DNA of 64,000 bases from Candidatus Xenobia bacterium (GTDB taxonomy: Bacteria; Vulcanimicrobiota; Xenobia; Xenobiales; QWHO01): assembly GCA_045863235.1 (NCBI GenBank), contig BTUM01000004.1, positions 96,001-160,000 on the forward strand. Reading direction: 5' to 3'. Both the position numbers and the translations under genes were made by a program. Within the stretch, counting starts at the first letter, position 1. Every line of letters starts with the position of its first letter. Of this stretch, positions 2,770-37,352 are shown in pieces. The notes under the pieces are model-generated. The model made no database searches. It worked only from the letters and a program-made list of their open reading frames with translations, and had not been told where the DNA came from.

Positions 2770-4626
2770 GTGCGGAGAAAACTACGCTTCGAGGATGAGC
2801 AGCTTCCCGACCGCTTCGAGGTGATCGAGCTGTTGGGCCGCGGCGCTATGGGCGAGGTCTACCGGGCCCACGACCGGGATCTCGGGCGCGAAGTGGCGGT
2901 GAAAGTGCTGCTTGAGTCGGCCTGGACCCCCGAGCTGAGCGAGCGCTACCAGCGCGAGGCCCGCGAGCTCGAGCGGGTACGCCATCCCAACGTGGTGGGC
3001 TTCTACGGCCAGGGAACTCACGAAGGGCGTGCCTTCCTGGTCCTCGAGTACGTCTCGGGCGGCGACCTGCGAGCCTACCTCCGCCAGCCCCGCGAGCGAA
3101 ACGAGTTACTCCTGCTCTTCGTGGGCCTGTGCCGGGGCCTGGCCGAGCTGCACGCTCGGGGGCTGATCCACCGTGACCTCAAGCCCGAGAACGTGCTGAT
3201 CGGAGCCGACGGTCAGGCCCGGTTGACTGACCTGGGCCTGGTGCGGGCCACCGACTCGAGCTCTCGCCTCACCTCCGAGGGGGCTCTGGTGGGCACTTTC
3301 TCTTACCTTGCTCCCGAGCAGATCACCGCTGGCGAAGCCTCGCCCGCTTCCGATCTTTATGCGCTGGGGGCCTGTCTGTATGAAGCTTTCGCCGGCCGAC
3401 CGGTCTTCCAGGGGCGCACCGAGTTCGAGCTACTCGAACGCCACGTACGGGCCGAGCCGGACTCTCCCGGGGTAACGCCCGAGTTGGACAGTCTGATCGT
3501 GCGGCTGCTGGCCAAGAAGCCGGAGGACCGGCCCAGTCTGGAGGAAGTCTCGCGCGGGTTGCTGGCCAGCCTGAGTCTGGGCGCCACCTCAGCCGTCCAG
3601 ACGGCACGGACCGGCCTGGTTTTGTCCGCGGTTGAGCCAGACCTGGCGCAGCCAGCCCAGAGCAGTGACTCGACCGCGGCAAGCACGGGCCTGGCGCGGC
3701 CCGTCCGGGGTGGCTCGTCGTCCGTGGTCGGGCCTGACACCAGCGCTTCGTCCGCGACAGGGACCGGCCCGCCCCCCCCTGACAATGACTCCAACACGGC
3801 CCGGTTCCAGATGATGCTGGCCTCCAAGCTGGAGCTGGAAGGCCGGCGCAAGGAAGCCCTCAACGCCTACCGCAGGGCCTACCGCCTGGCCGAGGAGGGC
3901 TCCGCCCAGCAGCGCGAGCTGGCCATCATCCTCGAGGAGTTGCAGCCTCGCAAGCGCTCACTGGCGTTGCCGCTGCTGATTCTGCTGCTGGCCTGCCTGG
4001 CTGGTGCCTCCTTCTGGTGGCTCCAGCGCCAGACCCCGGTGCAGCTGGCCGCTTTGCCTCCCATCGAGCTGCAGGGACCACCCACCACCCGGGTGCCGGT
4101 CAAGCTCTCGGTGCTGCCCGCCGGGGCCAGGGTCGAAGTGGACGGCCAGCCGGTCGAGGGCCCGCTCGAGCTCTGGCCGGGAACGCACCGCCTGAAGGTC
4201 TCCCACCCTCACCATCAGGCCGAAGAGCGCACCCTCACGGTGGAGGAGGGCAAGCCCTTGGAGCTGAGCGTGAAGCTTGCGCCCGCCCCGGTGGCCTTCC
4301 GGGTGCTGGTCACTCCCCCGCCGGCGCGGGTGGCCCTGCTCGACGGGCAGGGTAAGAAGCTCTCCGAGCAGGTGGTGCCCAAAGCGGGTACGGAGCTGAG
4401 GGCCCTGCCCGGGGAGTACACCCTGCGAGCCAGCCGACAGGGCCACCGGTCGCTCAGCCGCAAGCTCTCGGTGAAGCCAGGCCTGGAGCCGGTCAAGCTG
4501 GCGCTCGAGGAGCTGCCTCCTCCCCCCCCGCCGCCGCCGGTCTATCGCGAGCCGCTCTACGTGCCGCCCCCGCCGGTCTACTACCCCCCGGCCGGGGGAG
4601 GCGGACGCAGCTGGAATACGAAGTAG
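2770..4626 (+). CDS. Hanks-type Ser/Thr protein kinase with TM helix and extracellular PEGA-like repeats
   Basis: GRGAMGEV, VAVK, HRDLKPEN, DLG, YLAPEQ, SDLYALG; TM LALPLLILLLACLAGASFWW; PAGARVEVDG PEGA-like segment; Pro-rich tail. Confidence 0.95.
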   Translation: MRRKLRFEDEQLPDRFEVIELLGRGAMGEVYRAHDRDLGREVAVKVLLESAWTPELSERYQREARELERVRHPNVVGFYGQGTHEGRAFLVLEYVSGGDLRAYLRQPRERNELLLLFVGLCRGLAELHARGLIHRDLKPENVLIGADGQARLTDLGLVRATDSSSRLTSEGALVGTFSYLAPEQITAGEASPASDLYALGACLYEAFAGRPVFQGRTEFELLERHVRAEPDSPGVTPELDSLIVRLLAKKPEDRPSLEEVSRGLLASLSLGATSAVQTARTGLVLSAVEPDLAQPAQSSDSTAASTGLARPVRGGSSSVVGPDTSASSATGTGPPPPDNDSNTARFQMMLASKLELEGRRKEALNAYRRAYRLAEEGSAQQRELAIILEELQPRKRSLALPLLILLLACLAGASFWWLQRQTPVQLAALPPIELQGPPTTRVPVKLSVLPAGARVEVDGQPVEGPLELWPGTHRLKVSHPHHQAEERTLTVEEGKPLELSVKLAPAPVAFRVLVTPPPARVALLDGQGKKLSEQVVPKAGTELRALPGEYTLRASRQGHRSLSRKLSVKPGLEPVKLALEELPPPPPPPPVYREPLYVPPPPVYYPPAGGGGRSWNTK

Positions 4627-35114: not shown

Positions 35115-36476
35115 CTAATTGGTCAACCCCTGCAAAGGCGAAGGGATGCGTCCCCCCCGCAGCACGAATTCGCGGGCTGCAAAGCGGTGAACCGGCAGGA
35201 TGGGCGAGGCTCCCAGCAGGCCGCCGTAGTCGACCGACTCGCCGGCCCGCTTGCCAGGCACGGGCAGCAGACGGACGGCGGTGGTCTTGTTGTTCACCAT
35301 GCCGATGACCATCTCGTCGGCCATGATGGCCGACAGCGTCTCGGGTGTGGTGTCGCCAGGCACCACCACCATGTCCAGGCCCACCGAGCAGACCGCGGTC
35401 ATGGCCTCGAGCTTGTCGATGGTCAGGGCGCCCATGCTGACCGAGCGGGCCATCTCGGCGTCCTCGCTGACGGGAATGAAAGCACCGCTCAGCCCGCCCA
35501 CGCTGGAGGAGGCCATGGCCCCGCCCCGCTTGACGGCGTCGTTGAGCAGGGCCAGCGCGGCCGTAGTGCCGTGGGTGCCGCACTTCTCCAGGCCCATGGC
35601 CTCCAGCACCTCGGCCACCGAGTCTCCCGCGGCCGGGGTGGGAGCCAGCGACAGGTCCACGATGCCGAAGCGCACGCCCAGGCGACGCGAGACCTCGCGG
35701 CCCACCAGCTCGCCCATGCGGGTGATCTTGAAAGCGGTGCGCTTGATGGTTTCAGCCAGATCCTGCAGGGGAGCACCGTGCATCTGGCGCACCGCCGCAG
35801 CCACCACGCCCGGACCGCTGATGCCCACGTTGATGGAGATCTCGGCCTCGCCGGTGCCGTGCATGGCCCCGGCAATGAAAGGGTTGTCCTCGGGCTGGTT
35901 GCAGAACGTGACCAGCCGGGCGCAGGGGCCGCCCTGCAGCTCGGGGCGCAGGTGGGCGGTGCGGTGGATCACCTGGCCCATGTGCAACACCGCATCCATG
36001 TTCACACCGGCCCGGGTGGAGGCCACCGAGATCGAGGAGCACACGCGAGAGGTGGCGTTGAGGGCCTCGGGCAGCGAATCGATCAACACCCGATCGCCGT
36101 CCTTGTAGCCTTTGTGGACCTGAGCCGAGAAGCCGCCCAGGTAGTCGATGCCCACCGCTTCGGCGGCCCGATCCAGGGCCAGGGCCAGGGGGGTGTAGTC
36201 CCTGGCGCCCGTGGAGGCGGCGATGTAGGCCGCCGGCGAGATGGAGACCCGCTTGTTGACGATGGGGATGCCGAACTCTTCCGACACCGCCTCCACCGTG
36301 GGCACCAGCTTCTCGGCCGAGCGCAGGATCTTGCGCACCACCCGCTCGCACACGGAGCGCATGTCGGTGGCGCAGCAATCGAACAGGCTGATGCCCATCG
36401 TGACGGTGCGCACGTCGAGGTGCTGCTCCTCGAACATGCGCAGGGTTTCAAGAATCTCTTCGGAGGACAACCACAT
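35115..36476 (-). CDS. DUF711/UPF0210 (PFL-like) family protein
   Basis: LDVRTVTMGISL, IPIVNKRVS, EDNPFIAGA, IVDLSLAPT, CSVGLDM. Confidence 0.95.
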   Translation of the reverse strand: MWLSSEEILETLRMFEEQHLDVRTVTMGISLFDCCATDMRSVCERVVRKILRSAEKLVPTVEAVSEEFGIPIVNKRVSISPAAYIAASTGARDYTPLALALDRAAEAVGIDYLGGFSAQVHKGYKDGDRVLIDSLPEALNATSRVCSSISVASTRAGVNMDAVLHMGQVIHRTAHLRPELQGGPCARLVTFCNQPEDNPFIAGAMHGTGEAEISINVGISGPGVVAAAVRQMHGAPLQDLAETIKRTAFKITRMGELVGREVSRRLGVRFGIVDLSLAPTPAAGDSVAEVLEAMGLEKCGTHGTTAALALLNDAVKRGGAMASSSVGGLSGAFIPVSEDAEMARSVSMGALTIDKLEAMTAVCSVGLDMVVVPGDTTPETLSAIMADEMVIGMVNNKTTAVRLLPVPGKRAGESVDYGGLLGASPILPVHRFAAREFVLRGGRIPSPLQGLTN

Positions 36477-36592
36477 GGCGCACCCGGCTTCGCGAACGGG
36501 GACCGGAGGCCTGCCTGGGGGATGCTGGGCACCATGGAGGCTCTGGCCAGGCGGCTTCGAAAGCTGCAAGCATCCCCGGAAAGGAGCCCAGA

Positions 36593-36961
36593 ATGGTAAG
36601 ACGGATCGGATTGAGCCTGTCCTGCCTGCTGCTGCTGGCGATCCCCGCCATGGCACAGGTGGTGGACCTGCCCGCCGGAGCCGACAAGGTGGAAAAGCAC
36701 CTGGTTTCCGGCAAGACCACCATCGTGGAGTTCTACGCCGACTGGTGAGGGCCGTGTAAGAGAATGGCCCCCAGTTTGGAGGCCTACGCCAAGAATTCCG
36801 CCAACAAGACCGCCCTGCTCAAGATCAACGTTGACAACCACAGCGATCTGAGCGACAACATGGGAGTGCGTTCCATTCCCGCCTTCTTCATCTATGACGC
36901 CAAAGGCAAGCTGATCAAGCAGGGGCCTGACGCGCGCAGCTGGGTCGAGGAGAAGATCTGA
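36593..36961 (+). CDS. Exported thioredoxin with in-frame TGA at the first active-site position (WUGPC): probable selenoprotein
   Basis: AAGGAG RBS; ATG 36593; signal peptide; IVEFYADW-TGA(36746-36748)-GPCKRMAP; GVRSIP cis-Pro; same frame as the 36764..36961 track ORF. Confidence 0.85.
36766..36784 (+). promoter_or_regulatory. Candidate bacterial SECIS hairpin
   Basis: GGCCCCCA-GTT-TGGAGGCC stem-loop (one C.A mismatch); loop G 26 nt after the UGA; alternative GGGCCGT/ATGGCCC stem directly after the UGA. Confidence 0.55.
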
Positions 36962-36966
36962 CCCTG

Positions 36967-36995
36967 GCGGTGCTCAGGCAGCGCCTGGGCACCGC
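36967..36995. terminator. 13-bp hairpin between convergent trx and ACT genes
   Basis: GCGGTGCTCAGGC-AGC-GCCTGGGCACCGC; no U-tract. Confidence 0.55.
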
Positions 36996-37352
36996 TCAGA
37001 TCCGGTGCATGTAGGCGAAGATCTCCTCGCGCTGCAGGCGAAAGCGCACCCCCAGCGGACGAGACTCGACCTCCAGGCGCTCGCGCAGCTCAGCCAGGTT
37101 GGCCGCCGAGCAGTTGTCCACCTCGGCCGACAGAATCAGGGTGAAGCACTTTTGCTGCTCCACCGTGTCGGCCCGCAACACCCGCACCCCGTTGCGGGCC
37201 AGCAGATCGTGCACCCGGGTGGCCAGATCGGCGTGAGCCTGCGAGCCGACCTGATAGCGAGCCTCTCCCAGCACGATGTGGCGCGGTTCGGCGGCCGGGT
37301 AGCAGAGCCCGTCCGGCCCGTAGACCGCCAGTATCAGTCGGCATCCATTCAT
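36996..37352 (-). CDS. ACT domain protein (UPF0237-like, usual partner of DUF711)
   Basis: FTLIL...LRERLE...LGVRFRLQREEIFAYMHRI C-terminus. Confidence 0.8.
   Translation of the reverse strand: MNGCRLILAVYGPDGLCYPAAEPRHIVLGEARYQVGSQAHADLATRVHDLLARNGVRVLRADTVEQQKCFTLILSAEVDNCSAANLAELRERLEVESRPLGVRFRLQREEIFAYMHRI

Follow-up and report, generated by a model that had tools for sequence, protein, structure and literature searches.

The window, a stretch of 64,000 nucleotides from the source genome (G000), carries a gene for a small thioredoxin in which an in-frame TGA stands in place of the first active-site cysteine codon, and sequence comparison makes it very likely that the product is an exported selenocysteine (Sec) thioredoxin. 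That the TGA would be decoded as Sec is close to certain, and export of the protein to the periplasm by a signal peptide is predicted with high confidence. A first-pass annotation had proposed such an exported Sec-thioredoxin and our results support it, the export part by means of a hydrophobicity heuristic and a comparison of orthologues.

The gene and its product

The locus and its surroundings comprise the following features:

35115..36476, minus strand: DUF711 (PFL-family) gene, divergent from the thioredoxin gene (PF05167, E 4e-183)
36581..36586, plus strand: Shine-Dalgarno-like AAGGAG, read from the sequence, 6 nt upstream of the ATG at 36593
36593..36961, plus strand: putative Sec-thioredoxin gene, 122 aa, with W-U-G-P-C and an SIP cis-Pro loop, stop codon TGA at 36959-36961
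36593..36655, plus strand: predicted Sec/SPI-type signal peptide, residues 1-21, cleavage A-M-A/Q read by eye
36746..36748, plus strand: in-frame TGA, predicted to be read as selenocysteine (U52), aligned to the invariant first Cys
36766..36784, plus strand: predicted SECIS hairpin, loop GUU at 36774-36776, -10.4 kcal/mol, identical in 5 of 5 aligned orthologues
36964..36999, no strand assigned: strong hairpin where the thioredoxin and ACT-domain genes converge, -31.1 kcal/mol, z -4.8
36996..37352, minus strand: ACT-domain gene, convergent with the thioredoxin gene (NF001220, E 5.8e-9, below cut-off)

The ATG led by a ribosome-binding site and the TGA at codon 52 of the same frame, both described in the first-pass annotation, match the sequence: the TGA sits in ...FYADW-TGA-GPCKR..., and the frame is uninterrupted from there to the final TGA. 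An ATG led by a Shine-Dalgarno sequence is also present in the orthologues of G001, G002, G003 and G017. A codon model for which 2310 long frames of the source genome served as the training set gives a coding score per codon of 0.31 upstream of the TGA and 0.28 downstream of it. The read-through protein matches Pfam PF00085 (E 5e-20, 71.9 bits, cut-off 23.5) and codon 52 aligns with the invariant first Cys of its homologues, in agreement with the suggestion that the TGA marks the nucleophile of a WCGPC motif; the Pro of the cis-Pro loop is likewise invariant in the 26 aligned rows. The AlphaFold2 model, for which a 50-row alignment with Cys in place of Sec was used, has a thioredoxin fold (pLDDT 87.8), with low values of 56-57 over residues 1-20, the predicted signal peptide. 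Its top Foldseek matches are thioredoxins, and it consists of a single thioredoxin domain with neither a dimerisation nor a helical insert. A promoter scan of the gene found no sigma-70 site.

It had been anticipated that ORF callers would reduce the gene to a 65-aa stub, and the mechanical ORF list indeed gives only the fragment 36764-36961 at this locus. Three of the first six protein matches (P0002, P0003 and P0007, 68-69 aa) are database fragments that start at MAPSLEAY as this fragment does. The gene and its paralogues are stored in databases as cysteine-less pieces of 65-69 aa without signal peptide or active site. The remark that the codons just after the TGA (TGT AAG AGA) are unusually AT-rich stands only in part: TGT and AGA are rare in this genome (1.3 and 1.4 per 1000), whereas for Lys the genome prefers AAG (23.7, against 4.9 for AAA). 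Among orthologues the TGT and AGA codons vary, and it is the hairpin that is conserved.

The thioredoxin gene lies on the opposite strand to both flanking genes (window 35115-37352). In G004, a genome of the same genus, about 2.4 kb of other DNA separates the ACT and DUF711 genes (contig C6, 140287-142713), so this interval is a variable insertion site, and the orthologue in G017 is found in a different gene context. No redox neighbours of the gene are conserved, and synteny accordingly indicates no partner. The strong hairpin at 36964..36999 is a probable terminator or stability element. It formally fits the generic SECIS model, and the final TGA was considered as a second Sec codon and rejected, given that the frame beyond it has a non-coding score (-0.75) and is shifted in G002 and G003, and that the G017 orthologue itself ends in a TAA/TAG-type stop codon.

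Conservation of the in-frame TGA

Orthologues that carry the TGA occur in three of the four genomes of the genus (G001, G002 and G003, 90-96% identity) and, at 61% identity, in G017, which belongs to another family; no orthologue was found in G004. A further record (L063) holds a 91% copy with the TGA, which was not counted as a separate case, and it was the one close relative among the 80 loci recovered by a pattern scan of genome contigs, the others being distant thioredoxins. Where the first-pass annotation had called for a search for Cys/Sec alternation, the orthologues keep TGA and hairpin and the sister groups have Cys.

It had also asked whether raw reads might show TGC or TGT, and independent assemblies (contigs) show TGA. 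These were contigs from four runs of four studies, a possible source run (X1) being excluded, and the codon is bridged unchanged in three of them (X2, X4 and X7); X3 was not counted because its contig ends 4 bases past the codon. The X2 contig differs from the reference at five positions, by our reading four synonymous changes and one Asn-to-Lys, none of them in the hairpin. The X4 and X7 contigs that cover the codon come from RNA runs and serve as sequence evidence, silent on expression, start or strand.

The SECIS hairpin

A GTT-loop hairpin with its loop G 26 nt after the UGA, as previously noted, was found at 36766-36784 (GGCC-C-CCA-GTT-TGG-A-GGCC). The published bSECIS model (PMC13188914, Fig. 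2 legend) specifies a loop of 3-9 nt, a stem of 4-16 bp, a G in the first two loop positions, a spacing of 16-37 nt and an energy of at most -7.5 kcal/mol, and the hairpin agrees with it throughout, having a 3-nt GUU loop, seven pairs with one mismatch, a spacing of 25 and the energy listed above. The folding energy of the hairpin alone is unremarkable (z -1.6 to -2.0 relative to shuffled sequences), and in a free fold a rival hairpin at +1..+22 wins, so that the SECIS hairpin is not the free minimum-energy structure; for these reasons free folding was dropped as proof of a SECIS. A ribosome positioned on the UGA covers the first bases downstream, and with at least the first five bases masked the SECIS hairpin returns, with an apical pair probability of 0.88.

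The case for the SECIS is built on conservation of the hairpin and on a motif of the lineage, not on folding energy. Synonymous sites are identical between G000 and G017 at 6 of 6 positions inside the hairpin and at 26 of 49 outside it (Fisher p 0.03). The lineage motif, C-R-G(G/T)T closed by a stem, was defined from the first genes seen; it is present in 25 of the 26 Sec-thioredoxin genes of the class against none of the 63 Cys genes, and in all seven Sec-thioredoxin genes fetched after its definition. Its background frequency is 1.9% over all TGA triplets and 35 in 2423 over the TGA ends of long coding frames. The loop G of the Sec genes of the class lies at +21, +24, +26, +27 or +36, so that the codon phase of the motif is not the same throughout. 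The motif is missing from one Sec gene (L055), and the stretch inspected in two Sec-thioredoxin genes of G044 has no obvious C-R-G(G/T)T. Such a motif could be a cheap annotation aid for the class.

Selenocysteine machinery

The source genome (8.36 Mb, 65.8% GC, 97.6% complete) encodes SelA (431.7 bits), SelB (wing-3, 68.9), SelD (355.1) and a tRNA-Sec with a TCA anticodon (68.7, over the gathering score), each over its cut-off and all on contig C23. The genome search thereby bears out, for selA, selB, selD and tRNA-Sec, the earlier supposition that the organism has SelABCD. SelD itself contains a single in-frame TGA, in a UxxK motif. A SelA match was present in 43 of the 61 genomes of the relatives search, and in each of the 18 genomes for which a Sec-thioredoxin was classed.

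Predicted export and the thioredoxin family of the class

The signal-peptide heuristic, which looks for a hydrophobic 10-mer after a basic residue, recognises in the N-terminus a basic n-region and a 10-mer with a Kyte-Doolittle value of up to 2.6. The n/h/c layout is kept in four orthologues in spite of their different sequences.

A profile of 26 domains gave 113 matches (E <= 1e-15) in 44 genomes of the class, a list that is incomplete, as a third Sec-thioredoxin of G000 (contig C45) falls below the threshold. The DNA was examined for 110 of these matches, the three omitted being from genomes without a SelA match, and for one more paralogue of G000; 22 loci without a W-C/U-x(1-2)-C motif were left unclassed, one of which (L259) contains a TGA and begins with a signal-like sequence. 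Among the 89 classed loci, 26 have the TGA and all 26 pass the heuristic; 49 fail it and all 49 have Cys; the other 14 combine Cys with a signal peptide, two of them (L191 and L207) doubtfully. The three signal-less thioredoxins of G000 all have Cys. In this little-studied class, the Sec version would thus be found only in thioredoxin copies predicted to be exported.

A tree of the 89 rows was built from 108 columns and rooted at the midpoint, and many of its forks are open; in it a 99/95 branch divides the 40 exported rows from the 49 signal-less thioredoxins. As the exported copies form one clade, the link between Sec and export counts as one event and not as 26. The distribution of Sec on the tree needs seven changes, three of them forced by starred branches, and on this reconstruction Sec and Cys have switched repeatedly within the exported clade. 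Five genomes (G030, G034, G036, G037 and G039) have SelA, yet carry the Cys form without the lineage motif. The repeated switching within the clade supplies natural Sec/Cys pairs, with which one could ask why selenium persists in a compartment that is oxidising.

In a sample of 151 genomes of the phylum, the profile matched 42 at E <= 1e-19, and outside the class TGA forms were present only in G044, where two exported Sec-thioredoxins stand in tandem (contig C149, L268) with the motifs G-U-G-A-C and G-U-G-G-C. Seven exported paralogues (L054, L056, L058, L059, L061, L208 and L209) have a shortened U-x-C motif (WUPC, WUAC), with the SECIS loop nearer to the TGA at +21 or +24. Eight thioredoxin-like domains (L215, L200, L220, L203, L228, L232, L240 and L245) lack both active-site Cys and have W-S-K-T or a similar sequence.

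Other candidate selenoproteins and redox genes

All TGA triplets of the source genome were scanned with coding and hairpin filters, a heuristic procedure whose list may be incomplete. Ten Sec candidates were accepted, seven of them with an export signal: three thioredoxins, MsrA and three proteins on contigs C51, C70 and C13, of which the first two have no family match in Pfam and NCBIfam and the third none in NCBIfam. The candidates without an export signal are SelD, FdhA and a peroxiredoxin-like protein, the last a signal-less AhpC/TSA-like U-x-x-C protein (C14:16733-17218, minus strand). The candidates at C10:5689 and C28:8412 were dropped for want of a family match, and those at C27:5807 and C40:10756 since they look like gene junctions. 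Among the class matches, an internal TGA is present in 17 of 27 for MsrA, 12 of 12 for C51, 11 of 12 for C13 and 1 of 3 for C70, the TGA position having been checked in 4 MsrA, 10 C51 and 10 C13 loci.

Both further Sec-thioredoxins have the lineage motif at +36; one carries an N-terminal domain of 140 aa in addition to a signal peptide (C86:9836-10576, plus strand), and the other is a predicted lipoprotein (C45:13992-14384, minus strand). The Sec-MsrA (L149; C77:24375-25070, minus strand) has G-U-F-W, a signal-peptide-like N-terminus and a C-terminal Cys. The exported 299-aa C51 protein (L147; 52573-53469, minus strand) has its in-frame TGA in W-C-U-T-N-A and full-length Cys homologues in records labelled Armatimonadota; its motif may resemble the Sec region of eukaryotic selenoprotein N, a likeness on which a literature search found no paper. 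The exported 178-aa C13 protein (L267; 63876-64409, plus strand) has C-P-V-U and a conserved hairpin after the TGA, and the exported C70 protein (2949-3506, plus strand) has S-P-T-U-x-x-C and two homologues without the stop. An eleventh candidate (L146; C3:198855-199652, minus strand) has a signal peptide, an in-frame TGA and a 7-bp GGUC-loop hairpin at +18, followed by a Cys-rich domain that is expanded across the class; its N-terminal part has no homologue in 200 other genomes, and it may be a new selenoprotein or a nonsense mutation.

The genome also encodes a 673-aa DsbD-like protein (over the PF02683 cut-off and under that of NF001419), BamA-family proteins and three COX1-family matches (heme-copper oxidase subunit I), the last of which point to oxygen respiration. 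A Sec-thioredoxin is also present in 12 of the 14 genomes with a TGA-bearing MsrA, kin among which are not independent.

Proposed function and alternative readings

SelB binds the SECIS loop and delivers Sec-tRNA at the UGA. In the present gene, SelB on the GUU loop would deliver Sec-tRNA while the ribosome at the UGA would cover the 5' arm of the rival hairpin, and the signal peptide would send the protein to the periplasm, where U52 would attack a substrate disulfide or selenenyl-sulfide, C55 would resolve the U52 intermediate and the DsbD of G000 would re-reduce the thioredoxin. Such a role as a DsbD-fed envelope reductase is somewhat probable by analogy with the ScsB-TlpA-PprX path, as far as that path is described in the accessible part of PMC3322552. 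Thioredoxin regenerates MsrA (PMC13188914, in the text available), and the likeliest client might, quite tentatively, be found among the exported redox enzymes, for instance the Sec-MsrA of G000 with its signal peptide.

It is possible, if doubtful, that the exported Sec protein does not act as a DsbD-fed reductase of MsrA but as an isomerase or oxidase, as a direct scavenger of peroxide or metal(loid)s, or as a partner of the expanded surface proteins of the lineage. The motifs of its paralogues vary (WUGAC, WUPAC, WUPC, WUAC), some related exported domains have no cysteines, there is no synteny with dsbD or msrA, and G005 and G035 have a TGA-bearing MsrA with no Sec-thioredoxin among the matches. 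However, a GP between the two active-site residues is the reducing, TrxA-type dipeptide, and both the single thioredoxin domain without dimerisation or helical insert and the presence of DsbD argue for the reductase.

A selenoprotein that stays in the cytoplasm, owing to an alternative start or a non-working signal peptide, and is reduced there by thioredoxin reductase seems unlikely. Its WxGPC and best structural matches are those of ordinary cytoplasmic thioredoxins, a GTG with a weak Shine-Dalgarno sequence lies 19 codons upstream of the TGA, and export was judged by a heuristic alone; but the n/h/c layout persists in orthologues of differing sequence, the 99/95 branch separates the exported group from the signal-less thioredoxins, and a start at the GTG would remove the first strand of the model (E22-25).

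That the TGA is a real stop, whether by nonsense mutation in a pseudogene or by assembly error, is very improbable even though TGA is the commonest stop of the genome, TGC or TGT is one change away from it and G004 lacks an orthologue, since the TGA recurs in four other genomes of two families with the downstream frame intact and the hairpin invariant, three independent runs agree, and the Sec machinery is complete. Genome-wide reassignment of TGA to Trp or Gly, with selenium uninvolved, has nothing but the open frame in its favour and a negligible chance, as TGA is the stop codon of 1963 of about 2945 long coding frames and of this very gene and is therefore not reassigned, the sole TCA-anticodon tRNA found is tRNA-Sec, and the codon aligns with Cys and not Trp.

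Taking these findings together with the preferred reading of an exported, DsbD-fed Sec-thioredoxin, we suggest, speculatively, that the class puts most of its selenium in the envelope, with electrons passing from DsbD to exported Sec-thioredoxins and on to the exported Sec-MsrA and two exported family-less Sec proteins. Its cytoplasmic thioredoxins would all be of the Cys type; the exported clade would have started out with Sec and given it up several times, including in genomes that still have SelA. If so, the class would have a periplasmic repair relay built wholly on selenium, which would speak against the views that selenoproteins belong mainly to anaerobic life and that bacteria rarely revert from Sec to Cys. 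Of these results it is the envelope selenium network that deserves follow-up.

Comparison with known systems

Searches on Eremiobacterota and selenocysteine, poor in subscription papers, found no paper; wider searches returned no taxon name among the top 20 matches, and one on signal peptide, periplasmic and UxxC returned no exported Sec-thioredoxin by title. The main text of PMC13326102 (BSepDB), in the part available, does not name the phylum, and its database and supplements may hold these genes. No NCBIfam selenoprotein model reaches its cut-off with the present protein.

The protein is a known family member in an exported, lineage-specific form. A Sec-thioredoxin of the PF00085 UxxC kind is catalogued as experimentally verified (PMC13188914, Table 1, citing Kim et al. 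2015), and seven bacterial Sec-thioredoxin sequences are mentioned in the accessible part of PMC1794560. The present gene shares with the catalogued type the Pfam domain, the Sec at the nucleophile, the resolving Cys and a SECIS right after the UGA, and differs from its description in having a predicted signal peptide and in its membership of an exported clade from a single class; the available review text contains none of the words 'signal peptide', 'periplasm', 'secreted' and 'exported', nor does it name this phylum. With TrxA (TIGR01068, solved structures) it has the fold, WxGPC and the cis-Pro motifs in common, but at 73.8 bits it is below the equivalog cut-off of 96.8, has a heuristically predicted signal peptide and stands on a separate 99/95 branch.

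A functional parallel would be TlpA of Caulobacter, an envelope thioredoxin that is fed by ScsB and reduces PprX (PMC3322552, in the part available). Both are thioredoxin-fold proteins that are, or are predicted to be, exported, and here too the diderm genome encodes exported redox enzymes alongside a transporter of the DsbD class. The protein described here is, however, smaller, has Sec in place of Cys, scores 26-30 bits against cut-offs of 123-230 for the TlpA, DsbE and ResA models, and has an electron path that we infer.

Table 1 of PMC13188914 lists other thioredoxin-fold selenoproteins with UxxC, namely a thiol:disulfide interchange protein (PF13098), DsbG-like and DsbA-like proteins. The present protein differs from the PF13098 kind in that its best Pfam match is PF00085 (71.9 bits, against 31.8 for PF13098). 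The Cys namesakes of all three kinds are envelope proteins, and for this reason exported UxxC proteins are not without precedent.

According to section 10 of the same 2026 review, in the text available, selenoprotein-rich bacteria are mostly anaerobes, aerobes seldom keep selenoproteins, and a change from Sec to Cys is rare; in contrast, the genome described here has three heme-copper oxidase subunit I matches and about ten Sec candidates, seven of them with export signals. Labels of homologues give hints of the lineage: one homologue of a neighbouring gene is labelled Vulcanimicrobiota (74% identity) and one of the C51 protein Candidatus Eremiobacterota (54%), but L063 bears the label uncultured Burkholderiales and a second close homologue of the neighbour that of Candidatus Nitrosotenuis. 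What is new is the lineage (probably Eremiobacterota/Vulcanimicrobiota), together with a selenoprotein set that is by prediction mostly exported, with seven of ten candidates including Sec-MsrA, and that stands alongside DsbD and heme-copper oxidases.
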